A DNA stretch of 64,000 nucleotides from Methylococcaceae bacterium (GCA_050303615.1 JBNLCC010000119.1:9812-73811); one strand, 5' to 3'. Counted from the stretch's first letter, positions 3,629 through 52,047 are shown. Notes: generated by a model from the letters alone, not told the origin. Translations and numbers: made by a program.

Positions 3629-3652
3629 TTCTGTTTCCGAGCAACATAATCT

Positions 3653-6480: not shown

Positions 6481-6536
6481 CTATCAGGTTAACGGGCCGG
6501 CTGCCATGAAGCATTATAATCTATCGATATTTTAAT

Positions 6537-23044: not shown

Positions 23045-23048
23045 TCCA

Positions 23049-24569: not shown

Positions 24570-24622
24570 ATCGGATACTCTTTATGTCTGCTGCAAACTA
24601 CTTTGACAGGGTATTTTTTTCA

Positions 24623-25180
24623 TTAGGGTTTTTTATGCTGTAGTTTGGTGGCGGGATCATTGCAGGCGCCTTCTTTATGCTTATCGCTGTGCATAAATAC
24701 AGATGAAGAATCAACCATGATATTATTTTGTAAAAACCGCCGCCCTAAAAGAACAGGATAATTGAAATTACTCCTGTCAGCCAGGGTAAATTCAGTTTTG
24801 TAGTAATGTCCGTCAATACAAAACGCTAATTCCACGACAGGGCGAATTACCGCAGGAAGGTTGTGGCGTTTTATCGATGTATTTCTAAGCAACGGGACTT
24901 CTATTCTGTGTTCCGCGCCTTTTTTTTTGCCCGACGGCAAAGTAAATTTAACCCATTCATCACCGTCACGCTCGAACCTTTCAATTTTCTCGGCATGTAT
25001 TGAAGAGGTTTTGGCACCGGTATCGAGTTTTGCCCTAAGTCGGATCTGCCACGGCGATAAAACCACCGATTCCAACCATCCGGTAATTAAGATTTGCTTC
25101 CCGTGTTCTGCGCCGACAGCTGTCGGGATCCAAAAAAATAACGATAATATATTAATAAGCAAAGAAAATTTTCGTTTCAT
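24623..25180 (-). CDS. Secreted retropepsin-like aspartic protease (DUF785 / 'ATP-dependent zinc protease' / RimB-like family)
   Basis: 185 aa with a signal peptide (…IPTAVGA/EHG). It has the D-T-G motif in AKLDTGAKTSS and the retropepsin-like LLGRRFL near the C-terminus. Confidence 0.7.
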   Translation of the reverse strand: MKRKFSLLINILSLFFWIPTAVGAEHGKQILITGWLESVVLSPWQIRLRAKLDTGAKTSSIHAEKIERFERDGDEWVKFTLPSGKKKGAEHRIEVPLLRNTSIKRHNLPAVIRPVVELAFCIDGHYYKTEFTLADRSNFNYPVLLGRRFLQNNIMVDSSSVFMHSDKHKEGACNDPATKLQHKKP

Positions 25181-34661: not shown

Positions 34662-35385
34662 TATGAAAAGTTTAGCTCGCATTTTTTTATTATTACTGCT
34701 GCCTTTCGCCGCTATGGCGTCCGGCGGTATGCCATTGCAGGAAGCCAGTATCGATCTTACCGACAATGCGTCGCTCCGGCGCGGTGCAAAACATTATGTA
34801 ACTTATTGTCTTGGCTGTCACTCGGCCCAACACATCCGCTATCTTAATATCGCCCATAACTTCGACACCACGGAAGAAAAAGTTCTGGCCGAGATCGCAC
34901 CCGAAGGAGCGGGAATTTATGACAAACTGCTTAGCGCAATGAACGAACATGATGCGAATAGATGGTTCGGCACCAATCCGCCCGACCTGTCGCTGATTGC
35001 ACGGTCACGCGGTCCCGACTGGCTGTACAGCTATTTAAAGGGTTTTTATGTCGACCCGGGCAAGCCTTTAGGCACCAATAATGCCGTATTCAAAGATGTC
35101 GGCATGCCCAATGTTCTATGGCAAATACAAGGATTGCAAAAGCCGCTTTTTAAAAAGGAAAACGGACAAAAGATTATTGACAAACTTATTGCGATAGAAC
35201 CCGGTACAATGAGTCCTGACGAATTCGATCAATTTGTCAATGATTTGGTCACTTTTTTGGTTTATGTTGGTGAGCCTCACCAACTTGAACGAGTGCGTAT
35301 GGGCAAATACGTGCTACTGTTCATTTTTATGTTTATCGTCATCGCTTATCTTCTCAAAAAAGAATATTGGAAGGATGTACACTAA
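34654..35385 (+). CDS. petC: Cytochrome c1
   Basis: 243 aa with a signal peptide, the heme motif CLGCHS and a C-terminal TM anchor. Confidence 0.9.
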   Translation: MINMKSLARIFLLLLLPFAAMASGGMPLQEASIDLTDNASLRRGAKHYVTYCLGCHSAQHIRYLNIAHNFDTTEEKVLAEIAPEGAGIYDKLLSAMNEHDANRWFGTNPPDLSLIARSRGPDWLYSYLKGFYVDPGKPLGTNNAVFKDVGMPNVLWQIQGLQKPLFKKENGQKIIDKLIAIEPGTMSPDEFDQFVNDLVTFLVYVGEPHQLERVRMGKYVLLFIFMFIVIAYLLKKEYWKDVH

Positions 35386-35662
35386 ATCAACTGCTTGATA
35401 ATTACCGCTGAAGGAACAATATTTATTCAGCCGTGTTGCCGTAAATAAATAAAGTCTTTACGATATCACTTGCAAACGGTTGAACCGCTCAAGTTTTTCG
35501 CTTCCGGAAAATAAGGATATTTTCCGGATAACCACGCAAACGGAGGAATAATTTAAAACCCATGTTAATCTGCCGAAACAAAGGTAAATTGCTCGATTTG
35601 CCTGCGTTTTATTGTGTTTTCCCAACATATCTTACTCATATCCCAACAAACATAGCCGCCCA

Positions 35663-35671
35663 TGGTATAAT
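35663..35671 (+). promoter_or_regulatory. Extended -10 promoter candidate for sspAB
   Basis: TGgTATAAT lies 43 nt upstream of the sspA GTG start. There is no convincing -35 element. Confidence 0.35.
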
Positions 35672-35713
35672 AATTAGCTTATCCGCTGAATATCCCGATA
35701 GAGGCAATGTTTC

Positions 35714-36349
35714 GTGGCTAATCTTAATACCCGCAAATTTGTTATGAAACTATATTCTTCTGCTACCTGTGCAATGAGTCATTGTGCTCGTTTTGTATTA
35801 AACGAAAAGAAAGTTGCTGCGGAAATTGAATATTATGATCCGTCCGACCCTCCCGAGGATTTACTTGAATTAAATCCCAACGGTACATCGCCGACATTAA
35901 TTGAACGTGATCTGGTTCTTTATGATTCCCGCATCATCATGGAATACCTCGACGAACGTTTTCCTCATCCGCCGTTACACCAAATGGACCCCGTATCGCG
36001 CGCCAACGATAGAATGCTGATCAAACGTATCGATCAGGATTGGTATGTGCTGCTAGATGAAATATTAAATTCCGGTGAGAAAAAGTCGGCGCGCGCTAAA
36101 AAAATGCTAAAAGAGAGTCTATTATCCGCTGTCCCGATTTTCGACTCCCGGGCTTATTTTATGAGTGACGAATTTTCATTAATTGACTGCGCGCTGGCTC
36201 CGTTACTTTGGCGCTTGCCCAGTGTCGGCATTGACCTGCCCAAGCAGGCGGTGGCTATTAAGAACTACACCGACCGGATCTTTAAACGGGCCGCTTTTAA
36301 AGCGAGTCTTAGCGACGCTGAAAAAGAGATGGCTGAACTCCCTAAATGA
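35714..36349 (+). CDS. sspA: Stringent starvation protein A
   Basis: 211 aa with a GTG start. It is collinear with E. coli SspA (…RIIMEYLDERFPHPPL…, FSLIDCALAPLLWRLP). Confidence 0.93.
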   Translation: MANLNTRKFVMKLYSSATCAMSHCARFVLNEKKVAAEIEYYDPSDPPEDLLELNPNGTSPTLIERDLVLYDSRIIMEYLDERFPHPPLHQMDPVSRANDRMLIKRIDQDWYVLLDEILNSGEKKSARAKKMLKESLLSAVPIFDSRAYFMSDEFSLIDCALAPLLWRLPSVGIDLPKQAVAIKNYTDRIFKRAAFKASLSDAEKEMAELPK

Positions 36350-36723
36350 CTCCACTAAAACCTTACCTGATCCGCTCCATTTACGAATGGATACTTGACA
36401 ACCAAATGACACCGCATCTTTTAGTGGATGCGGAAAACACCGGAACCGTACTACCCCGGACATTCATTGAGGACGGTAAAATTGTCTTGAACATACGCCC
36501 TGAAGCCGTGCAGGGCCTATCATTGGGAAATGACGAAATAGAATTTAACGCCCGCTTCGGCGGTAAACCGATGCATATCATCGTTCCCTTGTCTGCAGTG
36601 ATGGCGATTTTTACCAAAGAAAACGGCAAGGGCATGTTTTTTGACAATGATCAAAACGAAGAACCCACGCCTCCGCCTGACAATAAGCCGACAACCAAAC
36701 CCAAGTTACACGTTGTAAAATAA
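36346..36723 (+). CDS. sspB: Stringent starvation protein B (ClpXP adaptor)
   Basis: 125 aa. It has PYLIRSIYEWILDNQMTPHLLVD and the C-terminal tail KPKLHVVK. Confidence 0.9.
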   Translation: MTPLKPYLIRSIYEWILDNQMTPHLLVDAENTGTVLPRTFIEDGKIVLNIRPEAVQGLSLGNDEIEFNARFGGKPMHIIVPLSAVMAIFTKENGKGMFFDNDQNEEPTPPPDNKPTTKPKLHVVK

Positions 36724-36807
36724 CTCCGATGGAAACAGGCTTAATTTAGAGGGTTTAGGAGCAAATCGCGCATCACGGCAAGTCCCAGCAACATTTGAAG
36801 GGCCGGA

Positions 36808-38553
36808 ATGAAAACATACTATCTCGGTTTATCGGTTACTTACCATGATCCGGCTCTAGCAATTATCAATGAACAGGGAGAAGTGCTGTATGCGGAAGCG
36901 ACCGAACGTTGTCTGCAAAATAAACGCGCGTTGAACTGCGCGCCGGACCAATTACTGCATATCGCCGGTATTTTAGAGACGTATTGCCCTGATCCCGGCG
37001 AGTTTGTCGTTAGCATTAACTGGCTGAAAAAACGCCCCTTGTATGAAACAGTCGTCGCCCGTTTGGGTTATTTATCGGCCCCTGGGTTGTTGAAACCCGG
37101 CTTCAAACGGCTGCGTTCGCCGCTGGAAAATTACCAGTTGCACCATATGATTGCCTGCCAGCGCAACAGCATCGTCACCGCCGGCATCAACCTGGTCCGG
37201 AAAGTCCGCGAACTTTATCCTCGATGCAAGATTCGCTTTGCCGATTTTGCTCATCATCTGACTCATGCTGCAACGGCCTGTTATAGCAGCCCTTTCGAGC
37301 ATGCAGCCTGTGCGGTTGTCGATTCCTTCGGTGAAAACGGTTCAATGGCTTTTTACCGTTACCGCAACCGGCGCCTGCAGTTACTGCATGAAACCAAGGG
37401 CACCGGCAGCCTGGGGTTTTATTATATGAAAATTACCGAACTATGCGGCTTTGACTGGCTAAAAGGCGAGGAATGGAAAGTCATGGGACTTGCCCCCTAC
37501 GGCAGACTCAATCAAGCGCTTTACCGCTTGCTGCAATCGACAATTACCGTCGACGGCTTGCACTGCAGCCATCCGGGAAAAAGCCTGTTCGACAATATCG
37601 AGGCGTTGCGGCAATTCCAAAATAACCAGGATAGCCCGATACAATCAGCCGCCAACCTGGCTTATACTGGCCAATTTTTCTTTGCCGAGTTAATGACACG
37701 CTTATTGCAGCACCTCTATAAGGTCAGTGGTTCCGATTACCTGACCCTGGCCGGCGGATGTGCTTTAAATTCCTCGTTCAGCGGACAAATCACCGGCCGC
37801 ACCAGCTTTAAACGGGTATTCATACCTTCCGCGCCGGCCGATGACGGTACGGCGTTGGGTGCAGCATGGCTCGGGTTTTACCGTGATTTTCCCGATTTTC
37901 CGGGACCGGCCAAATTATTATCGCCCTATACCGGTTCAACGATATCGGAATCGGCAATAACAAGATTGATCACCTTTAACGGCTCGCTAAAAATCCGCCA
38001 TTTGCCCGGCGAAATCTGCACGGAAACCGCCGGCAGGCTGGCCAGGGGCCAGCTTATCGGCTGGATCCAGGGCCGCGCCGAATACGGACCGCGCGCCTTG
38101 GGCAACAGGTCCATCCTGGCGGACCCACGCCATGCAGTAACCAAGGATCAAATCAACCAAAAAATTAAATTCCGCGAAACCTTTCGACCGTTTGCTCCCG
38201 CGATTTTGCATCAATACGGTGACGAATATTTTGAAAATTACCAGGAGTCGCCGTACATGGACAAAACACTGTCGATCAGGTCCGAAAAACGCAAGACAAT
38301 CGCCGCAGTCTGCCATGTCGATGGAACCGGGCGCCTGCAAACTGTCAAAAAAGAATGGAACCCGCGCTTTTATCATTTGATCGACAGCTTTTATCGAATC
38401 ACCGCTGTGCCGGTGCTGTTGAACACCAGCTTCAATATCATGGGCAAACCGTTGGTTCATTCTTTGGAAGATGCCGTCAGCGTATTTTTAACCACCGGCC
38501 TGGATGCGTTGGTCATCGAAGATTATTTGATATGTAAACCCGGGAATGAATAA
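36808..38553 (+). CDS. NodU/CmcH/TobZ-family carbamoyltransferase
   Basis: 581 aa. It has an ASKHA/Kae1-like N-domain (YLGLSVTYHDPALAII, metal motif HHLTHAA, LAGGCALNS) and C-domain motifs YGPRALGNRSILADP and NTSFNIMGKPLV. Confidence 0.85.
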   Translation: MKTYYLGLSVTYHDPALAIINEQGEVLYAEATERCLQNKRALNCAPDQLLHIAGILETYCPDPGEFVVSINWLKKRPLYETVVARLGYLSAPGLLKPGFKRLRSPLENYQLHHMIACQRNSIVTAGINLVRKVRELYPRCKIRFADFAHHLTHAATACYSSPFEHAACAVVDSFGENGSMAFYRYRNRRLQLLHETKGTGSLGFYYMKITELCGFDWLKGEEWKVMGLAPYGRLNQALYRLLQSTITVDGLHCSHPGKSLFDNIEALRQFQNNQDSPIQSAANLAYTGQFFFAELMTRLLQHLYKVSGSDYLTLAGGCALNSSFSGQITGRTSFKRVFIPSAPADDGTALGAAWLGFYRDFPDFPGPAKLLSPYTGSTISESAITRLITFNGSLKIRHLPGEICTETAGRLARGQLIGWIQGRAEYGPRALGNRSILADPRHAVTKDQINQKIKFRETFRPFAPAILHQYGDEYFENYQESPYMDKTLSIRSEKRKTIAAVCHVDGTGRLQTVKKEWNPRFYHLIDSFYRITAVPVLLNTSFNIMGKPLVHSLEDAVSVFLTTGLDALVIEDYLICKPGNE

Positions 38554-40738
38554 ATCCGCACATCCTTTCGATCCTTCACTACAGCCGGTTTTTTTCCGGC
38601 AGATCGAAACCGCCGCCCGCAAATATCCGCCGGGCAGCCGTGATTTGTTCCACTATCTGATCGGCATCGACCGCCATTACGAAACGCTACCAATAGCATA
38701 CCGGTTCATAGAGCAACAGCTCAGCGCCGCCGCCCGGCAATACCGACCGAAGTTCACCGTCAAGTACCATCCCGGCCACATCCCTTTTCCGGCCGATCGG
38801 CAGGCGATTTCACCGGCAAATCACCAACAAAACCACAGCAACCTGCATTACTGTTTAATGCAAATCGCACCGGTTCAGTTGACCGAACCCTGTTGGCTGC
38901 AGAACATCTCGCAAAGTGCGACCAGCGCCAGCGATTTTGCGGTAAAACTGTTGTCTGTTTACCGGAACCTTAGCCAAGGCGGAAGCGGGACCCCCACTTT
39001 GGCGGAGTTGTATCAGGCACTGCTGTTAAAAGCCGGTATAACATTGCCCGCTATAAACAGCAAAGCCTTTTGCCGGCAACCGGAACTACTCGATTGTGTG
39101 TTTGATTATGCTGCTGTGCAGTTGGCTCTGGCCCATTTCCCGCGGGTATTTTTCCCCGAATTGCTGGGATTTACCTGGGCTCATTGCCAATCGGCAACAT
39201 TGTTTGAAGCCTTGTTTACGAATTTTCCGGCAAGCAACGATGACCTGACGGCGTTCTGCCGGAGCCGACATGCCCGGCTTAGCGCCCAACTGCCTTTAGT
39301 CATCGGACTAATCAAGGACTATCTAAGCTTATTCAAGGCGCAGCAGGAATCCTTGTGGTTCAGGATACAAAACGGCTATTACCTGCATCGGTGGCAAGCG
39401 GCAGTATGCTGCGGGCAGATTCAGCAACAATTGGACAAACCTCCCTCCGTACCGCAAACTCTGGCGAAAATCTTCGCCCAAAAAGCGTTTGCCGCTGTCG
39501 GTCACCACGGCACCGTCACCCTGGCGGGCAAAACCCTTGACCAGTGGTTTGCGGAAAGCCCATTCGACGCCGACAACTTCCTGCAGGCATTAAACCAGTC
39601 ATCCTACATCGACCATCGGCAACCCACAGCCAGCCGTCTACTGAGACTGTTCGATTTCAACGGACCGATGTTCGGCGTGCTCAACCAGAACGAAAGAAAA
39701 GTTCTGGAAACTTGGCTGGTATCCGGGAACGGCGAAGCAAACGTTGCAGCTGAACCGATTGCCCCACGGGCAAAATCGACTCCGGCGTTTCCGTCCGCAA
39801 CAGGCGGAACACCGCAAGAAACCGTTAATTTCGAGAAATTAACCAACAGAGCATTGTACTACTACCTGGTCAATGCCGACTTATTCCCGGATGTGTTGCC
39901 TACCGCCAAACGCAAAGCCGAAAACATACTACGCAACGCGAGATTCCTCAATCGCCCGCCTTTCGCCCGATACGATCAGCGCACTTTCGAAACACTGATT
40001 GAAATGCGCTATCAGCATGAAATCGACGCTTACCAACCGCTACAAGGAACACCGAAACTGTCTCGGCAAACCTACCGCTGGGGCATTGAACAATTTGCGC
40101 CGACGGTATTGACCGACGGTTGTTGGCTGCAATGCACCGAACAGTTACGGTATTGTTCTGGAAAACAGATTACCGACAGGTTATTCCGGATTTACTGTGA
40201 TGAAGCAGGGAACGGCATCTTACAGCAAAATCATCCTTATATTTACCAACAATTGCTGCATAGCCTGCAAATAGAATTACCGCCGATTCACAGCCGGGAG
40301 TTCTGCGAATATGACGGGTTTATCGGCCATGCTTTCGATCTGCCGGCCTTTTTATTATCGATCTGCCGTTTCCCCGCCACCTACCTGCCGGAAATTCTGG
40401 GTCTGAACCTCGCCATCGAACTCAGCGGGTTAGGCAAAGTCTACCTGCGGCTCGCCGATGAATTAAAGTATTGGCGCATTGACCCGACCATCGTCAATAT
40501 CCACATATCGATCGATAACTATGCCTCGGGACACGCGGCGTTGGCCAAACAGGCGGTGGCATTATATCTGGACGACATTGGCGCGCGTTACGGCGATAAT
40601 GAAATGCAGCGCCACTGGCGTCGGATTCATACCGGCTACCGCTCATTGAAAACGGCCGGCGGTTTATTTTCCGCTGAGTTGCTCTACCGCTTTTTATTCA
40701 ACAAGCTGAAGAAGCTAAATCACGTTGGCATGCACTGA
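38546..40738 (+). CDS. Tandem heme-oxygenase-like di-iron ('iron-containing redox enzyme' family) protein; N-terminal copy degenerate
   Basis: 730 aa with two collinear repeats (aa about 100-290 and 510-705), each starting APxxLTxxCWLQ. Only the C-terminal copy keeps the carboxylate/His ligand pattern (CDEAGNG..NH, AIELSG, NIHISIDNYASGH). Confidence 0.65.
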   Translation: MNKSAHPFDPSLQPVFFRQIETAARKYPPGSRDLFHYLIGIDRHYETLPIAYRFIEQQLSAAARQYRPKFTVKYHPGHIPFPADRQAISPANHQQNHSNLHYCLMQIAPVQLTEPCWLQNISQSATSASDFAVKLLSVYRNLSQGGSGTPTLAELYQALLLKAGITLPAINSKAFCRQPELLDCVFDYAAVQLALAHFPRVFFPELLGFTWAHCQSATLFEALFTNFPASNDDLTAFCRSRHARLSAQLPLVIGLIKDYLSLFKAQQESLWFRIQNGYYLHRWQAAVCCGQIQQQLDKPPSVPQTLAKIFAQKAFAAVGHHGTVTLAGKTLDQWFAESPFDADNFLQALNQSSYIDHRQPTASRLLRLFDFNGPMFGVLNQNERKVLETWLVSGNGEANVAAEPIAPRAKSTPAFPSATGGTPQETVNFEKLTNRALYYYLVNADLFPDVLPTAKRKAENILRNARFLNRPPFARYDQRTFETLIEMRYQHEIDAYQPLQGTPKLSRQTYRWGIEQFAPTVLTDGCWLQCTEQLRYCSGKQITDRLFRIYCDEAGNGILQQNHPYIYQQLLHSLQIELPPIHSREFCEYDGFIGHAFDLPAFLLSICRFPATYLPEILGLNLAIELSGLGKVYLRLADELKYWRIDPTIVNIHISIDNYASGHAALAKQAVALYLDDIGARYGDNEMQRHWRRIHTGYRSLKTAGGLFSAELLYRFLFNKLKKLNHVGMH

Positions 40739-40849
40739 AGCACATCGCTCGCAGCCGCGGCAAACCACGGCGACCCAACACAAAATGGTCCGCCAAACCA
40801 AGGCAGTTGGTATATAATCGAAAATCCCGTTAAATTAATCACTGCGCCG

Positions 40850-41941
40850 ATGTTTGAACGTCTTGGTCATTTATTGTGTTTTGTCTTACCCTGCACAACA
40901 CTGTTATTCCTTACCGGCGGACCCTATGACAGCGGCGCAGCACTGGCCTGGACGCTGCCGCTCTGGCTGCTGGTGATCGCCGACTGGCTGAGTCCTAAAA
41001 TCGACCCGCTGCGGGGATACCCCGCTTTCACGGATCATTATTTTTCCGGCATTTTATATTCCCTGGCCGTTATGCAACTTTGTAACATCGGTTTGATGCT
41101 GGATTATGTCAGCCGGCTGCAATGGCACACTCAGGAGCAGATCATAACGGGCCTAGTGAACCTAATTGCCGCCCGCATTCTGGTCGGCACCAGTTCCGGC
41201 AGTTCGGGCTTTATCGTTGCCCATGAATTACTTCACCGTAAACGGCCATGGATAATATTGTTCGGCAATTTGCTGTTATGCAGCATGTGTTACCAGCATT
41301 TTGCCGTTGCCCATCTGCGCGGCCATCATCGTAACGTTACGGAACCCGACGATATAACTACGGCGCGGCGTGGTGAAAGCTTTAACAATTACTGGAAACG
41401 GGTGTTTATCGAGCATTTCCGTTTTGCCTGGCAAGTGGAATTGAAGCGTTTAAAAATAGTTGACCATCCGTACCATTTTCCAATATTGTTAAAAAACAGA
41501 GTGTTGCTCGGTTTATTGTCTGAATTAATGCTGATTTTGTCTTTCATATTCGTGTTCGGCTGGATTGCGGCGCTGTTGTTTCTGTACCAGTCGTTTACGG
41601 CCGTCCGGTTGCTTGAAGCAATCAACTATTTTCAACATTGGGGCTTGATAACCCGGTCCAAAGGTGCCGCACTGGCCTGGGTCAACGATTCCTGGGTGAC
41701 GCGCAACGCTCTGCTGAACCTATCATGCCATATCGATCATCATCGCTCTGCCGCTAAACATTTTCAGCAGTTACATTATTCCGGTCATGGCCCGAAAATG
41801 CCCCAGGGTTATTTTGTAACAAATCTTTGGGTAAAACTGCACAATCGTTCTTACCGAAAAAAAGCGATACGCGAACTCAAAAATTACCGTATACCTCAGC
41901 CTGCGCCGGCGTCCTCAATACCAGCGGTGATGCAGCAATGA
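40850..41941 (+). CDS. AlkB-like integral-membrane di-iron hydroxylase (fatty-acid desaturase superfamily)
   Basis: 363 aa. The His boxes are HELLH (125-129), HLRGHH (155-160) and HIDHH (294-298), plus the AlkB-specific NYFQHWG. The segment HHRNVTEPDDITTARRGES resembles the AlkB stretch after box 2. Box 1 to box 2 spacing is 30 aa, as in AlkB. Confidence 0.8.
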   Translation: MFERLGHLLCFVLPCTTLLFLTGGPYDSGAALAWTLPLWLLVIADWLSPKIDPLRGYPAFTDHYFSGILYSLAVMQLCNIGLMLDYVSRLQWHTQEQIITGLVNLIAARILVGTSSGSSGFIVAHELLHRKRPWIILFGNLLLCSMCYQHFAVAHLRGHHRNVTEPDDITTARRGESFNNYWKRVFIEHFRFAWQVELKRLKIVDHPYHFPILLKNRVLLGLLSELMLILSFIFVFGWIAALLFLYQSFTAVRLLEAINYFQHWGLITRSKGAALAWVNDSWVTRNALLNLSCHIDHHRSAAKHFQQLHYSGHGPKMPQGYFVTNLWVKLHNRSYRKKAIRELKNYRIPQPAPASSIPAVMQQ

Positions 41942-42498
41942 GACTTTATCACACTTCCCGGCACCCGCTGGCCTGCTGGCTGCTGTTGTTGATATTATCC
42001 GGTATGACGTTATACGAAGTGCATAAGCTTTATCAACTCTCGTCTTACAACCGGCTCCTTGACAGTCCGGAGACTATCGTCCAAACCGATTCGAGCCAGC
42101 CCGGAGAGGTCATCTTTGCCAAAGCGCTATATTTAAACCGGCAAGGCGATTATCAGCAGGCGCTGAGACTGTTCAATCAAATCAAGCATTCGCCGGACCT
42201 GCGTTTTCAACAGCGGGTTCTATACAATATGGGCACCATTTACCTGCAACACGCCGCCGGGTTATGGCGGGACAAGGGCGTTTGGGAGTCGAATCAGATC
42301 AATACCTTACTTGACCTGGCGGAACAGGCTTTGCGTCAGGTATTGGCTGCCGACCCTGAACACTGGCAGGCGCGCTACAATCTGGAATACGTGTTACGCA
42401 TCCGCCCTCCCGGCAAAGAACCGGAAAACGACAACTGGACCGGCCACAAAAGCAGCGTGTTTGCCGTCATGCCGGGAATACCCGCGGGAGGACCGTAA
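41938..42498 (+). CDS. Membrane-anchored TPR-like protein (BatC/MxaK-like)
   Basis: I chose the start MRLYHTS at 41938 (ATGA overlap with the alkB-like stop). It has one N-terminal TM segment and TPR-like helices (AKALYLNRQGDYQQALRLFNQI...). Confidence 0.5.
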   Translation: MRLYHTSRHPLACWLLLLILSGMTLYEVHKLYQLSSYNRLLDSPETIVQTDSSQPGEVIFAKALYLNRQGDYQQALRLFNQIKHSPDLRFQQRVLYNMGTIYLQHAAGLWRDKGVWESNQINTLLDLAEQALRQVLAADPEHWQARYNLEYVLRIRPPGKEPENDNWTGHKSSVFAVMPGIPAGGP

Positions 42499-43391
42499 TG
42501 AAGCTGCGCGTTTCCCTGCTGCGCGGCCAGGCCGCTATATATACAACGGTTCTACTGCTGCTGGCAGCGGCTTTATTTAAACCGGCAATCCCGATGCAGC
42601 GGCAAATTTTTAACTATATTTTTGTCATTGATATCACCCAGAGCATGAATGCCAGGGATTACCATGTCGCCGGTTTGCCGGCGGATCGCCTGTCTTTTGT
42701 CAAGCAATCGCTACAACATGTTTTGCACGAGTTGCCGTGCCACTCCAAAGTGGGTCTCGGATTGTTTACCACCAAAAATATGTTTCTGCTGTTTGAGCCC
42801 CTTGAAATTTGCCAACATTACCATGTCATCGAGACCAGTCTGGAAAAAATTGACTGGCGCATGGCCTGGGCGGCGGACAGCCATATTGCACGGGGATTGT
42901 ATGCCAGTATCCGCGATCTCGGAAAAGTTGGTTCTAAACCCCGGTTGGTGTTTTTTACCGACGGCCAGCAAACGCCTTCCGGCAGCAAAACACCGCCTTT
43001 TTTATCAACGCCCGGAGCAGTAAAAGGCCAAATTATCGGAGTAGGCAATTTACAACCGGTGCCCATTCCCAAGCTGGATAACAGCAATCGCCAAATTGGC
43101 TATTGGCTGGCCGATGAAGCGGAGACCCGTTCCCGAAGAACTGCCGGACGGCACATGTCTACGGAAAAATATTTAAGTTCGGTAAAGGAAAATGAGCTGC
43201 AACGCCTGGCCGGCATTACCGGTCTGCAATATCATCATCTGCAAACACCGCAGCAGTTGGCCGACCTATTACAGGCCGCCGATATAGGCAACCCCGAATC
43301 GGTGGACACCGACATTAGTTGGTTTCTAGCTGCAACAGCTCTGCTGGTGTTTGTCACTCCTTATTTTCGTACTATTTATGGCGATCGGTAA
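42498..43391 (+). CDS. Membrane-anchored von Willebrand factor A protein (BatB/MxaL-like)
   Basis: 297 aa with N- and C-terminal TM segments. It has the MIDAS-like motif VIDITQS and a downstream FFTDGQQ. There is a TAATG junction with the upstream gene. Confidence 0.7.
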   Translation: MKLRVSLLRGQAAIYTTVLLLLAAALFKPAIPMQRQIFNYIFVIDITQSMNARDYHVAGLPADRLSFVKQSLQHVLHELPCHSKVGLGLFTTKNMFLLFEPLEICQHYHVIETSLEKIDWRMAWAADSHIARGLYASIRDLGKVGSKPRLVFFTDGQQTPSGSKTPPFLSTPGAVKGQIIGVGNLQPVPIPKLDNSNRQIGYWLADEAETRSRRTAGRHMSTEKYLSSVKENELQRLAGITGLQYHHLQTPQQLADLLQAADIGNPESVDTDISWFLAATALLVFVTPYFRTIYGDR

Positions 43392-43593
43392 ACTGCTTAT
43401 CCTATTCGGGCTGATGCTCGTTGTTGCGGGGCTGATCGTCAACTATGCGCCCTGGTTGTTCAACTGGTTCGGCAAACTGCCCGGCGATATTAATATCCGC
43501 GATGAAAAACGTGCGATATTCATCCCGATTACTTCCATGCTGCTGCTCAGTATCATTATTTCGATAATTTTAAACCTTTTTTTCCGAAAATGA
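43378..43593 (+). CDS. DUF2905 small membrane protein
   Basis: 71 aa from MAIGKLLILFGL. It has the motif GKLPGDINIRDEKRAIFIPITS flanked by two TM helices. It overlaps the vWA gene by 14 nt. Confidence 0.65.
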   Translation: MAIGKLLILFGLMLVVAGLIVNYAPWLFNWFGKLPGDINIRDEKRAIFIPITSMLLLSIIISIILNLFFRK

Positions 43594-44525
43594 CCCGACT
43601 TATCATAACGCTCTTTCCCGTCTGGGCGATTGGGCTATCGATCATCGCTTATTTCTTTCCCAACTGGTTTACAAATTTAAAACCGGCCATCATTCCGCTG
43701 CTGTCGTTAATCATGTTCGGCATGGGCATGACCCTGACTTGGCGCCATTTTACAGCGGTAATAAAAAAGCCGTTCATCATCGCCCTCGGCGTCGGCATTC
43801 AATTTATCTTTATGCCGTTTGTTGCCTGGCTGCTGGCGCTTGTTTTGGAATTGCCCGAACAGTTGCTGGTCGGCATGGTGCTGGTCGGCAGCACTGCGGG
43901 CGGGACTGCTTCAAACGTGATTTGCTACCTGGCAAAAGGCGATGTTGCATTATCCATCCTTATGACCATGACTTCGACACTCTGCGCAGTATTTGCAATG
44001 CCGGCCCTAACCTTCCTGTATTTGCATCAGTCGGTGCCGGTGCCGGTATGGGAAATGATGCAAAGCATTATGACAATCGTGTTAATCCCGGTGGTAACCG
44101 GCACAGCGATCAACTCCCTCTACGGCAAACATGTCGCTAAAGTCCGTGATTTTTTTCCGTTACTTTCCAGTTTGGCCATTGTGTTGATAATCAGCATTAT
44201 CGTTGCATTGAATAAACAAAACCTGAGCGAATTGCAACTGCCGCTTCTCGTAGCGGTCATACTGCACAATACCCTTGGTTTGCTGTCCGGTTATGTGATA
44301 CCCCGGCTACTAAACTACGATCCTGCAATTTGCCGCACCGTCAGCATAGAAGTCGGAATGCAGAATTCCGGACTCAGCGTCGCGCTGGCGATAAAATACT
44401 TTTCCACTCTGGCCGCGTTACCCGGTGCGCTGTTCAGTATCTGGCACAACGTTTCCGGCTCAATGCTGGCAGCTTATTGGCAATGTCACGTCGATGTTCA
44501 AAAACGACACCACAACGCCACGTAA
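43590..44525 (+). CDS. Bile acid:Na+ symporter (BASS) family transporter
   Basis: 311 aa with about 9-10 TM segments. The typical BASS motifs are GMGMTL, GGTASNV and GMQNSGL. It shares an ATGA overlap with DUF2905. Confidence 0.8.
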   Translation: MTRLIITLFPVWAIGLSIIAYFFPNWFTNLKPAIIPLLSLIMFGMGMTLTWRHFTAVIKKPFIIALGVGIQFIFMPFVAWLLALVLELPEQLLVGMVLVGSTAGGTASNVICYLAKGDVALSILMTMTSTLCAVFAMPALTFLYLHQSVPVPVWEMMQSIMTIVLIPVVTGTAINSLYGKHVAKVRDFFPLLSSLAIVLIISIIVALNKQNLSELQLPLLVAVILHNTLGLLSGYVIPRLLNYDPAICRTVSIEVGMQNSGLSVALAIKYFSTLAALPGALFSIWHNVSGSMLAAYWQCHVDVQKRHHNAT

Positions 44526-44692
44526 CAAACACCCGTTCTTTATCTAGCCGCAATAATAGAACTCGATGCAACGATCAAACGCATCGCACAACCGTGATCT
44601 GTTGGCACCGTCACATCTCTTTACGAACAGAGAGCCAGCCGCACCGGCCCGGGGGCAATCGGGCCGCTGCTTGCTGTCAAGTCGTCTCCGGC

Positions 44693-45097
44693 TTAATACC
44701 ATGGACCCCAAGGCCCCCACGCGCCCCAGTTCATGGCGGCATCCTCGTTCATCATGGCGGCCTGCTGATTCATTTCCGCAATATTACGCCGCTCCGCCAT
44801 TCGCTGATACTCCTGATAAGCCCTTTCAGTACCAAGATACAGGCATTTACAAAATTCAGCATCGGCATAGGCATAGTACACAACACCATCTTTTTCATGG
44901 GGAACCAGTTTCGATTGGGTCATGGTTTTCAGATGGGCAAGCCGCTTAGGCGTATCGGCAAATTTCATCTGGAAACCGGCCGCGGCGAGCATCCTTTCGG
45001 TATCCATGGCATGACTCTTTTCCATTGCCGCACAACCATGCAATAAAACGGCTAACGCCAGCATTGTACCTATATTAGCTAATTTGTTTATTTCCAT
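44693..45097 (-). CDS. Lipoprotein of unknown function with Trp/Gly/Pro-rich C-terminus
   Basis: I chose the start MEINKLANIGTMLALAVLLHGC (lipobox LHGC) at 45097. The C-terminal tail is NWGAWGPWGPWY. Confidence 0.55.
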   Translation of the reverse strand: MEINKLANIGTMLALAVLLHGCAAMEKSHAMDTERMLAAAGFQMKFADTPKRLAHLKTMTQSKLVPHEKDGVVYYAYADAEFCKCLYLGTERAYQEYQRMAERRNIAEMNQQAAMMNEDAAMNWGAWGPWGPWY

Positions 45098-45161
45098 TTT
45101 TCTGTCTCTCTTGTGGATTGTACAATTTATGCAACGATACCTTATCATTGCAACACGATAC

Positions 45162-45887
45162 TTAATATTTATCTAAAATTTGCTGGTACCTGCCGTCCTG
45201 CCGCATTGCATTGATCGCCTGATTAAAATCAGCAACAATTTTGGCGGCATCGGGGTTTTGCCTGCTGACTCCGATGCGCAGTCCTCTACTACTCAACGGC
45301 TTGTCGAGAAATTCAAGCTCATTCATTCTGCGCGGCATATATTCATTAATCTGGTAAACTACAGCCCTCTCATCACCCAAGGTCAGATCGATATCACCCT
45401 GCACCAGCCGTTGTAAATTCTGGACAATATGATTTTGAGGCAGTTTGATATGCCTTTTTGAATTGACGAATTCCTCCTCATAGGCGTAATCCTTTAACAC
45501 CCCGATAAAATAACCGGTCAGATCCTCCAACGTCTCATAACGGATATCCCGGCCTTTCATTTTTAAGAATTTAATCCGGTTGGTCAAATAGGGTTCGCTA
45601 AACACCATCATCGTTTCCCGCTCCGGAGTTTTCCATACCGTGCCGATTACGTCAAAAATGCCTATTTCCAAACCTTCAAGTGCCCTTGGCCACGTTTCGT
45701 ACTGCAGTGTCAAGTGATAGCCTTTTCGCTGCAATGCCGTCGATACAAGCTCCACGGCCAAGCCATTGCCCGGTAGACTCCTCTCCGCATAAGGCGGCCA
45801 AGTATTGACCACCATAGTCAAATTGCCGGCAAGCACTTCGCCGCTCAGTAGCAGTATCAATGACAGGAGCCATTTCGGATCGACCAT
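45162..45887 (-). CDS. Orphan periplasmic substrate-binding protein (SBP family 3-like)
   Basis: 241 aa with a signal peptide and a type-3 SBP pattern (PPYAE..., GIFDVIGTVWKTPERE..., DLTLGDERAV). There is no adjacent permease or ATPase. Confidence 0.7.
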   Translation of the reverse strand: MVDPKWLLSLILLLSGEVLAGNLTMVVNTWPPYAERSLPGNGLAVELVSTALQRKGYHLTLQYETWPRALEGLEIGIFDVIGTVWKTPERETMMVFSEPYLTNRIKFLKMKGRDIRYETLEDLTGYFIGVLKDYAYEEEFVNSKRHIKLPQNHIVQNLQRLVQGDIDLTLGDERAVVYQINEYMPRRMNELEFLDKPLSSRGLRIGVSRQNPDAAKIVADFNQAINAMRQDGRYQQILDKY

Positions 45888-46023
45888 TTCGATTCAACTC
45901 TCTTTGCTATACTTTGTGGAATGTATATATTTACTGCTATAAAATTTCGCCATTTTCTCTGATATTTTTTGCTAATACTATAGCGTTATTACACAGCCGA
46001 CAATAATAAAAGTAGCATAAATC

Positions 46024-46944
46024 ATGGATACATCTTCAAAAAAAGTCATATTGGCCGCACTTGCGGGCAACACGCTGGTGGCAGTCACCAAATTTACCGC
46101 CGCGTTTTACAGCGGCAGCTCCGCAATGTTGTCGGAAGCCATTCACTCTGTCGTTGACACCGGCAACCAGATTTTACTGTTATACGGTTTGAAACGCGCT
46201 CAAAAACCGGCTGACGACCGCTTCCCCTTTGGTCACGGCAAGGAAATTTATTTCTGGAGTTTTATCGTCGCTATACTTATTTTCGCGATGGGTGCGGGCA
46301 TTTCCATTTACGAAGGCATACACAGTATCATAAATCCAAAACCGCTTGAAAACATTTTTATCAATTATATCGTGCTCTGCATCGCCATGCTGTTCGAGAG
46401 TGCCGCCTGGTACTACGCATTAAAGGAATTCACCCGCGCTAAAGGTAAGTGGGGTTATGTGGAAGCGATTCAGCGCAGCAAGGACCCGTCCATTTTTATG
46501 GTCCTTTTTGAAGACAGCGCAGCAATGCTGGGGTTATTGATTGCATTTTTCGGGGTTTTTTTCGGACAGATAAGCGGAAACCCTTACTATGACGGTATCG
46601 CTTCGATTTTGATTGGTATGATATTAGGCGGAACAGCCATCTGGCTGGCTTATGAAACTAAAGGTTTACTGATTGGTGAAAGCGCCAATCAGGAAATTAT
46701 TGCCGGTATCCGGCAATGCGCCGGTGCACATCATATCGTTGAGCATGTTAATGAAACGCTGACCATGCACATGGGGCCGGATTTTGTGTTAGTCAATTTA
46801 AGTATCGATTTCTCGGATAGCGCTGGGGTCGGGGACATCGAAAAAGCCATTTCGGAAATCGACCGGCAGATAAAACAATGCTTTCCAGTCATCAAACGCA
46901 TTTTTATTGAAGCTGAATCGAAACCCGAAAGGATCATTCATTGA
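46024..46944 (+). CDS. Cation diffusion facilitator family transporter
   Basis: 306 aa with 6 TM segments. It has the CDF signature (SAMLSEAIHSVVDTGNQ) and a C-terminal cytoplasmic domain. Confidence 0.85.
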   Translation: MDTSSKKVILAALAGNTLVAVTKFTAAFYSGSSAMLSEAIHSVVDTGNQILLLYGLKRAQKPADDRFPFGHGKEIYFWSFIVAILIFAMGAGISIYEGIHSIINPKPLENIFINYIVLCIAMLFESAAWYYALKEFTRAKGKWGYVEAIQRSKDPSIFMVLFEDSAAMLGLLIAFFGVFFGQISGNPYYDGIASILIGMILGGTAIWLAYETKGLLIGESANQEIIAGIRQCAGAHHIVEHVNETLTMHMGPDFVLVNLSIDFSDSAGVGDIEKAISEIDRQIKQCFPVIKRIFIEAESKPERIIH

Positions 46945-47453
46945 CCATTTTCGGCAACACCATCAATCCGGCACCCGGAAGTTATATCCTGATTATGCAA
47001 AACCAAGTCGATCTTTGCATAACAATCGGCAAACGGGGCATGCTTTCCATTTTTCACGGGTATTATCTTTACGTCGGCAGCGCCTTCGGTCCCGGAGGAA
47101 TTTCCGCACGAGTACGCCACCACAGCCGCATACAGGATCGACCTCATTGGCATATCGACTATTTGAGAAAACACACGCGGTTAACTGAAATCTGGTTTAG
47201 TTACGATCAAATCAGGCGGGAACATCAATGGGCTAGTTTACTGAAAACGCAAGACAATGTCTCAGTACCGATGCCGGGTTTTGGAGCAACAGACTGCAAT
47301 TGCAGCAGCCATTTACTTTTCTGTTCATCAAAACCCGATTTTAATGCTTTTATAACGCACACTTATAACTCTCTTCCCGATCATAAAACGATATTACGTC
47401 AACCAACAGTCGCAGCCAAGGGAAACAATGAGGACATCAAAACCGGTAATTGA
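46941..47453 (+). CDS. GIY-YIG-like DUF123 protein
   Basis: 170-aa ORF with a TTG start overlapping the CDF stop; the start is uncertain. GSYILIM...GYYLYVGSAFGPGGISARVRHH...HWHIDYL matches the DUF123 pattern as I recall it. Confidence 0.6.
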   Translation: MTIFGNTINPAPGSYILIMQNQVDLCITIGKRGMLSIFHGYYLYVGSAFGPGGISARVRHHSRIQDRPHWHIDYLRKHTRLTEIWFSYDQIRREHQWASLLKTQDNVSVPMPGFGATDCNCSSHLLFCSSKPDFNAFITHTYNSLPDHKTILRQPTVAAKGNNEDIKTGN

Positions 47454-47481
47454 GGCGAACCTGCAAGCGACAAAAAAGCAA

Positions 47482-47862
47482 TCAGGCGACCTGAATGGGT
47501 ATGGAATGGGTGGAACGGACTATTTCATTCTTTTCATTAAAATAGACCAGAGTCGGCTTATGGTTAAGCACCTCTTGTTGATCCAAAACGGCAAAAGTAC
47601 AGACGATAATCAAATCGCCCGGGCAAGCTAAGCGGGCCGCTGCGCCGTTAACGGAAAAAACGCCGGACCCCTCCTCGGCGCGAATGGCATAGGTGGTAAA
47701 ACGTTCGCCGTTGTTAATATTGTAAATTTGTATTTGCTCGTACTCCCTGATACCGGCGAAGTCCAGGATCCTGCCGTCGATAGCACAAGAACCTTCATAA
47801 TCCAGCTCGGAATGAGTTACACTTGCCCTGTGTAACTTGGCTTTAAGCATTGTCGTCAGCAT
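47482..47862 (-). CDS. panD: Aspartate 1-decarboxylase PanD
   Basis: 126 aa. [26 protein letters not shown] contains the G-S self-processing site. Confidence 0.95.
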
Positions 47863-47990
47863 ACTTAAGTTAGTCTAATACAATTCTGGACGCGGAATTA
47901 TGCCTGAAAAAGGGATCTCTATCAACCACGGTTTGGGTCTCCAATAAAACGTGTTGTGCTAATTGTACAGCATCCACCCTGATAATAAAA

Positions 47991-49028
47991 TCAATCCCTG
48001 ACCCGAAAGTTGATTGTGGCAATTGGCGAACCTTTTGCGCTAAACCAGGCAAATTCATCAAACAGATCAAAGCTCAGTACATAGTCACCGCGTTCGGTAA
48101 CGGCCGGAAGCTCGAACTTAAGCACCGTCTCATCGCCGGGCATTAAATCAAAGTCGGCATTGTTGCTCTGATATACTTGATGCCGGGTTAACAATTCGTT
48201 ATCCAATTTATAAAAATGCGCACCTAGCAGCACGCCTTTTTTTGTTGATGAGCGTAATGGAATAACTTCGCGGCTTTCGTTGACAACCCGCACCTTTAAT
48301 TTTTCCGGCTTTCCGATTCTTATAACTTCCGGCGGATCAACGGGGGAAATTCCGGCCAGATAATAATGCGGGACATATACCCGGTCCACCCAATGCATCA
48401 ATAATGACCGATCATGTTTGCGTCCGGTAAGCCAATCTTGATAAGCTTCCAAAAATAACCTGCCGACACTGTCTTGAATTGCAAAATATTTCAGCGAACT
48501 ATGTTCCCAGGCTTGCTCAATCGTACTGTCCGGTAGCAACAAAATAGCCAAGGAACTAACCAAGCCGGTTCTGTCGGCGCCTTTACGGCAATGCACCAAT
48601 ATAGGCCGCGGCGCCGTACTAATCACTTTGACAATACGCTGCAATTCAGCTTTGGCGGGCAACCGGAGAGACTGCAGGCCAATCCTCAAAGTATCGGCAT
48701 TGATAAATTTCACGCCGGAATGCACTGCAATTTTTTTTTCCTGCAAATACCACTGCGCATTGTTATCGTGGCCGCGCAGGTTGAATATTGATTTAATTTT
48801 ATATTGATCGATCACTTGCTGCAGCTGACCGGCAGACAACTGTCCGCTTCTGTATAATTGTCCCGGAATCACCACACCGAAATTGCCATTAGCATCCCGA
48901 ACAAAGCCGGAAGCAATGAATACAAGCACAAAAATACAAATAACCAGGGCGATTTTGTTTCCAAACGGCCACCGGTTATTTTGGCCGGCTGCCGAACACA
49001 CCTTGAAAAACTTATCGGGACTGAGCAT
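47991..49028 (-). CDS. Membrane-anchored Cys-based (dual-specificity/tyrosine) phosphatase with C-terminal beta-rich domain
   Basis: 345 aa with an N-terminal TM segment and the CX5R P-loop VHCRKGADRTG. It has an extra C-terminal domain of about 130 aa. It overlaps the MscS-like gene by 17 nt. Confidence 0.7.
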   Translation of the reverse strand: MLSPDKFFKVCSAAGQNNRWPFGNKIALVICIFVLVFIASGFVRDANGNFGVVIPGQLYRSGQLSAGQLQQVIDQYKIKSIFNLRGHDNNAQWYLQEKKIAVHSGVKFINADTLRIGLQSLRLPAKAELQRIVKVISTAPRPILVHCRKGADRTGLVSSLAILLLPDSTIEQAWEHSSLKYFAIQDSVGRLFLEAYQDWLTGRKHDRSLLMHWVDRVYVPHYYLAGISPVDPPEVIRIGKPEKLKVRVVNESREVIPLRSSTKKGVLLGAHFYKLDNELLTRHQVYQSNNADFDLMPGDETVLKFELPAVTERGDYVLSFDLFDEFAWFSAKGSPIATINFRVRD

Positions 49029-51180: not shown

Positions 51181-51183
51181 TCG

Positions 51184-52047
51184 TTACCGGCAAAGCGGCA
51201 CTTGGATATTATCGATCAATCTGGCATTTCCCAGTTTTGCGGCGGCCAAAATCACCAGATCGGCATCGAACACCGTTACCGGTTGTAAATCGTCAGCGCG
51301 GCATATTAAAAAATAGTCCGTTTCGAAACCGGCTTTTTGCAATGATTCAAGCTGTTGTTGTTCAATAGCGGCAAAATTCTCGTCACCTGCACAAATCATC
51401 TGCTTTGCTGTATTTAATGACCGGAATAACAGCGGCGCTATCTTTCTTTGCTCAGTTGACAAATAACCGTTCCTGGAACTCATTGCCAATCCGTCGGCTT
51501 CGCGGACGGTAGCTACCGCACGGATTTCCACCGGAATGTTCAGATCATCCACCATGCGCCGAATAACCGCCAGTTGTTGATAGTCCTTGAGACCGAAAAA
51601 TGCCGTATCGGGCTGCACTATATTGAATAATTTGCATACAATCGTCGCAACACCGCTGAAGTGCCCCTTCCTGCTTATACCGCAGTGCATATCGGAAAGG
51701 CTGTTTACGGTAACAACAGTATCCGGCGAAGAAGGATAAATTTCGCCGCCCCCCGGCAAAAATAATAAATCGGTATGACTATCTGTCAATTTTTGGCGGT
51801 CCTGTTTTTCAGTGCGCGGATAACTGTAAAAATCCTCGCCTACGCCGAATTGGGTCGGATTGACAAAAATGCTGGCCACAACACGATCGGCGCATTGCCT
51901 GGCTTCCTTCACCAGTTGCAAATGCCCTTGATGCAAATTGCCCATAGTCGGCACCAAGGCTATCGTTTCGCCTTGCTGTCGCCACAATTTAACTTGGCGA
52001 CGCAAGTCCTTTATAGATTCAACTACTTGCATATCATTTAAAAACAA
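51184..52047 (-). CDS. panC: Pantoate-beta-alanine ligase PanC
   Basis: 287 aa. It has VPTMGNLHQGHLQL (HIGH-like) and typical PanC motifs. Confidence 0.95.
   Translation of the reverse strand: MFLNDMQVVESIKDLRRQVKLWRQQGETIALVPTMGNLHQGHLQLVKEARQCADRVVASIFVNPTQFGVGEDFYSYPRTEKQDRQKLTDSHTDLLFLPGGGEIYPSSPDTVVTVNSLSDMHCGISRKGHFSGVATIVCKLFNIVQPDTAFFGLKDYQQLAVIRRMVDDLNIPVEIRAVATVREADGLAMSSRNGYLSTEQRKIAPLLFRSLNTAKQMICAGDENFAAIEQQQLESLQKAGFETDYFLICRADDLQPVTVFDADLVILAAAKLGNARLIDNIQVPLCR

Follow-up and report, generated by a model that had tools for sequence, protein, structure and literature searches.

Do seven consecutive genes whose stops and starts overlap or abut necessarily belong to one pathway? 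The question was raised by a 64,000-nucleotide (nt) stretch of DNA from a Methylococcaceae bacterium (GCA_050303615.1, JBNLCC010000119.1:9812-73811), referred to here as the window, in which genes for a carbamoyltransferase (CT), a tandem heme-oxygenase-like di-iron oxidase (HDO), an AlkB-like membrane hydroxylase, a tetratricopeptide repeat (TPR) protein, a von Willebrand factor A (vWA) protein, a DUF2905 protein and a BASS-family transporter follow one another on the + strand. An earlier note on this DNA had described them as a single translationally coupled cassette with a dedicated transporter. Sequence comparison with related loci indicates that genes 1-3 and genes 4-7 are very probably two modules. 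The best overall explanation, favoured on balance, is that two independent modules abut here and that the trio (genes 1-3) is a tailoring unit around the two-domain HDO.

Related loci were collected with the HDO as anchor. The genome set consisted of 80 loci with 10-kb flanks, all from Methylococcales, and was searched by tblastn with 14 window proteins; the underlying scan was pattern-based, and divergent copies may escape it. The metagenome set consisted of 83 metagenome-derived loci, giving 163 loci in total; a metagenome scan using a diverse alignment yielded 80 loci beyond the genome set, and gene arrangements were classified by tblastn. Loci with at least 3.5 kb on both sides of the HDO gene were termed well-flanked (75 overall, 43 from Methylococcales). 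The taxonomy of distant HDO clades was taken from cluster look-ups.

Genes 1-3 were kept together. The CT gene lay directly 5' of the HDO gene in 63/80 Methylococcales loci, with 56-70% identity to gene 1, and an AlkB-like gene adjoined the HDO gene in 63/80. Among the 43 well-flanked Methylococcales loci, CT was adjacent in 40, the AlkB-like gene in 42 and both in 39, in agreement with the view that genes 1-3 form a genuine set, strongly conserved and apparently without prior characterisation; for all 75 well-flanked loci the counts were 65 for CT and 59 for the AlkB-like gene. The CT stop overlapped the HDO start in 50 of the 63 Methylococcales loci, and the identities of CT and HDO to the window proteins co-varied (Spearman 0.86, n = 114). 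Genes 4-7, by contrast, were found in none of the 163 HDO-anchored loci (80 genome and 83 metagenome-derived, tblastn). The neighbourhood search around the HDO therefore bore out the co-localisation of genes 1-3 and spoke against that of genes 4-7, which were never found with them. Window genes sspAB and petC were also missing from all 80 genome loci by tblastn, and the other flanking window genes gave scattered weak matches (27-34% identity) for solute-binding and cation-efflux proteins in six loci.

Genes 4-7 have contexts of their own. Gene 4 gave weak TPR matches, BatC among them, and its product is 42% identical over 186 amino acids (aa) to a Methylocaldum protein (locus L089) encoded between mxaC and mxaL. 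Gene 5 matched VWA_2 with 31.2 bits (cutoff 27) and was 48% identical over 270 aa to the protein in the MxaL position of the same Methylocaldum locus, and more than 20 of its homologues carry the JGI name 'mxaL protein'. Gene 6 matched PF11146 (E 7e-21) with 60% identity to its Methylocaldum counterpart, and a homologue follows an MxaL-like gene on the 3' side both there and in a second locus, L087, where the 14-nt overlap is kept. The gene order in the Methylocaldum locus is moxR-DUF58-mxaA-mxaC-(186 aa)-(306 aa)-DUF2905. Genes 4-6 thus resemble the proteins that follow Methylocaldum mxaC in the mxaRSACKL/MoxR-vWA 'Bat-like' systems; they differ from these systems in lying outside any mxa/MoxR cluster, and no MoxR, DUF58, MxaS, MxaA or MxaC homologue was found in the window. 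Gene 7 matched SBF (E 1e-42) and the NCBIfam PanS model (NF047939) with 343.4 bits, which is below the 400-bit cutoff. It lies about 3 kb from panD (47482-47862), with panC at 51184-52047, and in Methylicorpusculum a vWA-BASS pair stands beside panD, panC and panB.

The closest relative of the block of genes 4-7 was L087, with 77% identity in MxaL and with the 1-nt, 14-nt and 4-nt overlaps conserved. In that locus the block is preceded by metH, a UPF0114 gene and a glutaredoxin-like gene, and is followed, as in the window, by genes for a solute-binding protein, a cation diffusion facilitator and a DUF123 protein, then panD, an MscS-type channel gene and panC. By blastn, synteny between the window and L087 covered 41955-51701, beginning 17 nt after the gene 4 ATG, with none upstream; the breakpoint was therefore placed at the gene 3/gene 4 junction. 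On these comparisons genes 4-7 are a block unrelated to the trio, made up of an MxaK-like protein, an MxaL-like protein, a DUF2905 protein and a PanS-like transporter that travels with pantothenate genes. The seven-gene cassette of the earlier note, together with the dedicated transporter that it proposed, is thereby given up.

All seven + strand open reading frames (ORFs), with their coordinates and overlaps, were exact on direct reading of the sequence (Table 1). The HDO ATG at 38546 overlaps gene 1 by 8 nt, the gene 1 TAA being 38551-38553. Genes 3 and 4 meet in ATGA (41938-41941) and genes 4 and 5 in TAATG (42496-42500); the gene 6 ATG at 43378 lies before the gene 5 stop (43389-43391), which gives a 14-nt overlap, and genes 6 and 7 meet in ATGA (43590-43593). 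Short overlaps between same-strand neighbours are normal in bacterial operons, so those among the seven genes were not taken as evidence of shared function. The ATGA overlap of genes 3 and 4 is a lineage-specific accident of juxtaposition, and both modules are probably transcribed as one by read-through, in this genome only. Translational coupling alone had joined two unrelated modules, and comparative synteny was needed to part them.

Table 1. Features of the seven-gene region, in positions of the window.
Feature	Position (nt)	Strand	Residues	Description
Gene 1	36808..38553	+		CT, NodU/CmcH/TobZ family, 581 aa; opens the trio
Gene 2	38546..40738	+		Tandem HDO, 730 aa; hub gene of the module
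HDO, N-terminal copy	38546-39730		~1-395	Degenerate
HDO, linker			396-423	Disordered
HDO, C-terminal domain	39833-40738		430-730	Predicted catalytic domain
Spacer	40739..40849			111 nt between HDO and AlkB-like genes; sole gap; TATAAT at 40813-40818
Gene 3	40850..41941	+		AlkB-type integral-membrane di-iron hydroxylase, 363 aa; third trio gene
Gene 4	41938..42498	+		MxaK-like TPR protein, 186 aa; opens the separate block
Gene 5	42498..43391	+		MxaL-like vWA protein, 297 aa
Gene 6	43378..43593	+		DUF2905 small membrane protein, 71 aa
Gene 7	43590..44525	+		BASS-family transporter, PanS-like, 311 aa

The domain calls held in profile hidden Markov model (HMM) searches (Carbam_trans_N/C, PF14518, FA_desaturase, TPR, VWA_2, DUF2905 and SBF), the FA_desaturase match being assigned to the AlkB type through PDB 8f6t. 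The TATAAT in the sole gap was given no weight because the window contains this hexamer 43 times, 26 of them on the + strand, because the promoter scan of the gap gave no two-hexamer site and no matching -35, and because promoter-like sites across the region were not enriched (12 versus 13.8 ± 4.5). An internal promoter at this position was accordingly dropped as uninformative. No + strand terminator-like site lay in the gap. Rfam matched nothing within 36300-45200 at E up to 1, and a riboswitch, or an RNA element of another kind, was therefore rejected for the spacers. In orthologous loci the spacer between the HDO and AlkB-like genes ranged from -49 to +876 nt and was mostly below 100 nt.

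Five arrangements of the HDO neighbourhood were distinguished, and they follow the HDO phylogeny, the nearest neighbour being of the same type in 66/75 loci. Type A, the Methylococcales type, reads CT>HDO>AlkB. Type B (20 metagenome and 3 genome loci; the one named member is a Methylococcaceae metagenome-assembled genome) has the AlkB gene divergently upstream, then CT>HDO. Types C and D both read HDO>CT, with a CT about 31% identical to gene 1 and a GDSL-like protein, often joined by a LysE exporter and a LysR regulator, in type C, and a CT 52% identical to gene 1 in type D. The HDO gene stands alone in type E. No AlkB-like gene was present in the type C loci, whose nearest named HDO relatives were from Burkholderia ubonensis, B. 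multivorans, Pseudomonas spp. and Limnobacter. On the strength of this linkage across arrangements and loci, HDO and CT were taken as the invariant core and the AlkB-like enzyme as a third partner in the methanotroph lineages.

A LysR regulator, a tandem HDO, a LysE-type exporter, a CT and a GDSL-like protein were seen together at L098:6448-13187, at L134:4387-10844 and at about 10 more loci. A tandem HDO homologue at L090:8001-18190 stands beside a trans-acyltransferase (trans-AT) polyketide synthase (PKS) cluster with an HMG-CoA synthase/enoyl-CoA hydratase/ketosynthase/acyl carrier protein beta-branching cassette and a CT 45% identical to gene 1.

Additional neighbours were found in marine Methylococcales. 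In 18 loci (L029:6599-8263, L083:6595-8262 and 16 others) CT is immediately preceded, on the same strand, by a B12-type radical SAM/DUF4070 gene, whose stop overlaps the CT start in L083 and L084, the loci checked. A CDP-alcohol phosphatidyltransferase gene (165-191 aa) follows the AlkB-like gene on the same strand in 11 loci (L023:13295-13870 and 10 others), with the motif D-x2-DG-x2-AR...G-x3-D-x3-D intact. The radical SAM gene, the trio and the phosphatidyltransferase gene possibly form a five-gene cluster of lipid type in these organisms. About seven Methylomarinum and sponge-symbiont loci had no adjacent CT, and five of them have a repeat protein upstream instead. This protein is about 525 aa long with SGVAKYL-type repeats (L024:232-1857, L038, L045, L047 and L060). 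A potassium-channel-like gene with two transmembrane segments (Ion_trans_2) adjoins the trio in the Methyloglobulus clade (L007:7420-7845 and 9 others) and in the divergent-AlkB type (L173:9704-10174).

The tandem nature of the HDO was confirmed by profile comparison, in which residues 1-400 and 425-730 aligned with 99.3% probability (E 3e-20); Pfam detects the C-terminal half only (PF14518 on residues 514-697, 59.6 bits, cutoff 28.9). Six ligand residues, E553, H563, E625, H653, D657 and H663, were invariant in all three alignments (A1, A2 and A3), and HxxxDNxxxGH was present in 159/160 homologues. Non-ligand residues occupy the positions of the N-terminal copy that align with E553 and H563, so this copy cannot bind a cofactor in the same way, and its role would be structural or substrate-binding. 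When 1.84 billion cluster representatives (50% identity clusters) were searched with the full HMM, 558 matched the HDO with E < 1e-30, and among the 150 best matches listed most were about 700 aa long with both halves present. A profile search of the large protein collection with the diverse alignment A2 gave merely 9 matches, none named, owing to a word-index limit, and was discarded.

When the HDO was searched against the PDB by sequence (single sequence and two profiles), RohS alone was matched, marginally (E 0.016-0.85), through a DExGxG...H motif, and structure prediction was therefore needed; AlphaFold models were compared with the PDB using Foldseek. The predicted local distance difference test score was 83.9 for the full-length protein and 84.7 for the C-terminal domain alone. 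The top matches of the C-terminal domain were HrmI (2.5e-4), SznF (8.4e-4) and RohS (1.3e-3; TM 0.65/0.68), each with probability 1.00, and CADD, FlcD, PolF and UndA (E 1.3) ranked lower. The C-terminal domain is the predicted catalyst, with six canonical metal-ligand residues and an N-oxygenase-like fold.

The PF14518 heme-oxygenase-like helical fold is shared with SznF (streptozotocin), RohS (azomycin) and HrmI/BelK (nitro-lysine). As in SznF and RohS, a Glu-x9-His element lies on core helix 1, in the window HDO DEAGNGILQQNH (PMC13133933), and as in RohS the core-helix-2 Glu (E625) lies 28 residues before the HxxxD motif (PMC13133933). The window HDO differs from SznF, RohS and HrmI in its length of 730 aa with a ligand-less HDO copy in front and no cupin domain, in its last His, which lies 5 residues after the Asp and not 2, and in its carbamoyltransferase partner. 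None of the solved HDO structures retrieved in the searches had such a tandem architecture.

The 1-alkene synthesis enzymes UndA and UndB come from the same two superfamilies (HDO and membrane desaturase-like) and act on hydrophobic fatty-acid substrates; they are alternative enzymes and not a clustered pair. UndA further differs from the window HDO in being a single-domain, substrate-triggered enzyme of far lower Foldseek rank, with no carbamoyltransferase involved.

Gene 1 matched Carbam_trans_C (231 bits, E 7e-69) and Carbam_trans_N (91 bits, E 1e-25), and among solved structures NovN (233 bits), GdmN (227) and TobZ (192), with E 5e-68 to 1e-54. Its HHLTHA aligns with the NovN metal motif HHLAHA, and in CT orthologues HHxxH was found in 108/115 and D..GE in 108/115. 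Gene 1 was rejected as NodU itself, with 140.7 bits on the NodU equivalog (NCBIfam NF041651) against a cutoff of 1000, and is a family member only. It shares with TobZ, NovN, GdmN and NodU the two-domain architecture (Kae1-like and YrdC-like) and the HHxxH metal motif, and differs from them in its divergent first ~147 residues, in lying outside aminoglycoside, ansamycin and Nod clusters, and in its coupling to an HDO.

Gene 3 matched PF00487 (E 1e-25) and solved AlkB structures over residues 31-322 (8f6t, E 1e-25, 93 bits; 8sbb, E 9e-16). It carries HELLHRK, HLRGHH, NYFQHWG and HIDHH; in its orthologues the His boxes were present in 81/81 and NYxxH[WY]G in 80/81. Like AlkB/AlkG it is a predicted integral-membrane di-iron enzyme with HExxH[KR], HxxxHH, NYxxH[WY]G and HxxHH; it differs in having no rubredoxin (fused or within the window), no catabolic genes and fixed HDO and CT partners.

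Judged by these motifs, the trio encodes three enzymes that appear catalytically intact and that were shown to be inherited together, CT and HDO with a translationally coupled junction. In the proposed mechanism the AlkB-like enzyme would hydroxylate a C-H bond in a hydrophobic substrate that resides in the membrane, the CT, using ATP, would transfer a carbamoyl group from carbamoyl phosphate to a hydroxyl or amine of that substrate, and the HDO would carry out an O2-dependent oxygenation of nitrogen, either of the new carbamoyl N or of an amine of the same substrate. The chances are about even that the trio tailors a hydrophobic substrate by oxidation and carbamoylation; the specific three-step order from AlkB-like enzyme to CT to HDO is doubtful. 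Of the pathway idea put forward earlier, in which a membrane substrate is oxidised and then carbamoylated, the part that concerns the trio is kept as a conjecture and the transporter, being unlinked to the trio, is dropped. The persistence of the CT-HDO pair with three different third partners suggests that CT and HDO act consecutively on one functional group. The HDO-only loci, which suggest that the HDO substrate need not be made by a CT, offset that argument, and for this reason the step order is held loosely. A membrane substrate is favoured in marine methanotrophs because of the lipid-type neighbours found there.

Several points weigh against this reading. No publication links these proteins to a product. 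In this genome genes 3 and 4 do overlap, which makes co-transcription of both modules likely and a lineage-specific functional link possible. About 10 of the 75 well-flanked loci lack an adjacent CT, so a neighbouring CT is not strictly required by the HDO. In the fold search the identities were 13-16% and the E-values only moderately low (1e-3 to 1e-4), so that N-oxygenation is a lead and no more, and the third His is spaced HxxxDx5H in the HDO against HxxxDxxH in RohS and SznF. HDOs of subgroup 1, such as SznF and RohS, are substrate-independent enzymes that oxygenate an amine or guanidine nitrogen through a peroxo-di-iron intermediate. Their 'seventh' carboxylate ligand, a glutamate on auxiliary helix 2, precedes the Glu of core helix 1 by 26 residues (PMC13133933). 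The window HDO has an invariant Asp (D524, within TDGCW) 29 residues before E553, near that position, and this Asp may stand in for the glutamate. Finally, no rubredoxin or ferredoxin donor was found near gene 3, with no CxxCG...CPxC in any of the window's reading frames and no fusion of gene 3 to a rubredoxin.

Among the alternatives, the one that survives best is that the trio makes a small secreted specialised metabolite, such as an N-hydroxy or N-nitroso carbamate, or a urea-type signal, toxin or metal binder, with an alkyl tail that the AlkB-like enzyme hydroxylates. SznF, RohS and HrmI, the closest structural relatives of the HDO, each form a pharmacophore of the N-O or N-N kind. In the cluster type whose nearest named HDO relatives come from Burkholderia, Pseudomonas and Limnobacter, CT-HDO is joined by a LysR regulator, a LysE exporter and a GDSL-like enzyme, and a CT-HDO pair occurs in the trans-AT PKS cluster. 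Beside the trio in Methylococcales loci, however, no non-ribosomal peptide synthetase, PKS, exporter or regulator was found; the added neighbours there are of membrane-lipid type (CDP-alcohol phosphatidyltransferase and B12 radical SAM), and the trio lies amid housekeeping genes. For the methanotroph trio this alternative was accordingly considered unlikely, and tailoring of a hydrophobic substrate is preferred to it.

A second alternative concerns bacteriohopanepolyols (BHPs). Here the trio would tailor an amino-BHP side chain, the AlkB-like enzyme adding the extra C-30/C-31 hydroxyls and CT and HDO acting at the C-35 amine or neighbouring hydroxyls, and the carbamate-type BHP biomarkers would be the products, either immediate or formed on later reaction with methanol or an adjacent hydroxyl. 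Amino-BHPs with a methylcarbamate or ethylcarbamate group have been reported from Type I methanotrophs, with structures that are tentative by mass spectrometry (PMC5100885, PMC11844350), and O-carbamoyl BHPs occur in some Alphaproteobacteria (PMC12583986); both were counted in its favour. So was the absence, in a full-text literature search, of any paper naming genes for methylcarbamate or O-carbamoyl BHPs or for aminopentol hydroxylation. The named relatives of the AlkB-containing form are Methylococcales, and a membrane-bound, amine-bearing substrate would suit an AlkB-like enzyme and an N-oxygenase-like HDO.

Weighed against this, no hopanoid gene was identified among the annotated recurrent neighbour clusters of the 163 loci, and no hopanoid neighbour was conserved. 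The radical SAM neighbour was rejected as HpnR, HpnJ or HpnP-like, with scores far too low (27.7 bits versus 650 for HpnR and 33.4 versus 577.6 for HpnJ). The methanotroph compounds are N-methylcarbamates (PMC5100885), and carbamoyl transfer does not directly yield a methylcarbamate (N-CO-OCH3). Methylcarbamate BHPs were present in every Type I strain tested (PMC5100885), yet the named trio hits, from a pattern-based scan that may miss copies, exclude type strains such as Methylomonas methanica, Methylomarinum vadi and Methylomicrobium alcaliphilum. The CT-HDO pair also occurs without an AlkB-like gene in Burkholderia, Pseudomonas and Limnobacter. Tailoring of the amino-BHP side chain was for these reasons judged improbable, and the hopanoid-carbamate speculation of the earlier note gained no direct support, there being no hpn gene among the conserved neighbours. 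A broader form, in which CT and tandem HDO are a new two-enzyme unit installing an N-oxygenated carbamate or urea (N-hydroxy, N-nitroso or isocyanate-releasing) and, with the AlkB-like enzyme, decorate an amine-bearing membrane lipid such as the amino-BHPs, is likewise a long shot. If true, it would explain genetically how the carbamate-type BHP biomarkers arise, and possibly also the extra side-chain hydroxyls.

A single seven-gene pathway, in which a membrane substrate is hydroxylated, oxidised and carbamoylated, the TPR/vWA pair and the DUF2905 protein assist and the BASS protein moves the product, has in its favour the common strand, the overlapping or abutting stops and starts, and the lack of a + strand terminator-like site between genes 3 and 4. 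With 0/163 HDO-anchored loci holding genes 4-7, conserved contexts of these genes with mxa and pan genes, the synteny break at the gene 3/gene 4 junction and a transporter that is PanS-like by score 3 kb from panD, it appears largely refuted by the comparative data and is very improbable. Least credible of all is that gene 3 is an ordinary alkane hydroxylase of hydrocarbon catabolism with incidental neighbours, since for all its clear membership of the AlkB family (8f6t match, all His boxes) the window holds no rubredoxin motif or fusion, no rubredoxin reductase, alcohol dehydrogenase or aldehyde dehydrogenase is among the conserved neighbours, and its linkage to the HDO is kept in 59/75 well-flanked loci, even after inversion.

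All three enzymes of the trio are from known superfamilies. In the searchable literature no paper was found that brings together HDO, carbamoyltransferase and diiron, or that links a carbamoyltransferase relevantly to hopanoids, and the tandem of pseudo-domain and catalytic HDO, the near-constant pairing with CT and the trio with an AlkB-like hydroxylase appear undescribed there. Unusual oxidations continue to be found in the HDO superfamily, and the subfamily found here is large (558 clusters), with an undescribed tandem architecture and a near-obligate CT partner. As the tandem HDO occurs in tractable genera (Burkholderia and Pseudomonas) as well as in methanotrophs, its chemistry is directly testable. 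Should the methanotroph form have membrane lipids as its substrates, it could account for lipid decorations that are specific to certain taxa and serve as tracers of aerobic methane oxidation.

NCBI contig JBNLDU010000068.1 (assembly GCA_050304575.1) encodes a protein identical to the HDO (gene 2), and the next-nearest sequence has 52-53% identity only. The named relatives of the HDO in the genome scans were all Methylococcales (Methylobacter, Methyloglobulus, Methylomicrobium, Crenothrix, Methylomagnum, Methyloprofundus, Methylomarinum, and sponge and snail symbionts), in line with the methanotroph host that had been guessed. The GC content of the trio (0.49-0.53) is slightly higher than that of its neighbours (0.44-0.51); no conclusion on horizontal transfer was drawn from this. 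The rest of the window is of housekeeping type and includes rpoN, lptBAC, kdsCD, mlaFE, hisGDC, petABC, sspAB, panD, panC, pcnB, lptFG, pepA and valS.

Some further features of the window were recorded. A sulfur-handling group at 2270-8270 comprises a sigma-54 activator, a metallo-beta-lactamase/rhodanese fusion (persulfide-dioxygenase-like), a Pyr_redox_2 protein and a SulP/STAS transporter. A three-gene set at 22070-25180 (- strand) encodes an ATP-grasp protein (ATPgrasp_ST), a fusion of seven transmembrane segments with an inactive transglutaminase, and a putative ATP-dependent zinc protease. Between this set and a Na/Ca exchanger gene lies a lone ORF (20844-21410, - strand) with a weak match to SLATT_4, an effector domain with two transmembrane segments that is typical of conflict systems. 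Terminator-like hairpins in 35300-46100 numbered 27 against 13.2 ± 3.6 in shuffled sequence, about twofold, and were mostly intragenic and on the - strand. A tyrosine-phosphatase-like gene (Y_phosphatase3/PTP-NADK) at 47991-49028 (- strand), between panD and the MscS-type channel gene, is missing from the otherwise syntenic L087. Convergent with the BASS gene, a gene call without Pfam match was placed at 44693-45148 (- strand), its longest reading being 151 aa with the C-terminal GAWGPWGPWY, and the DNA similarity to L087 spans 44699-45044.

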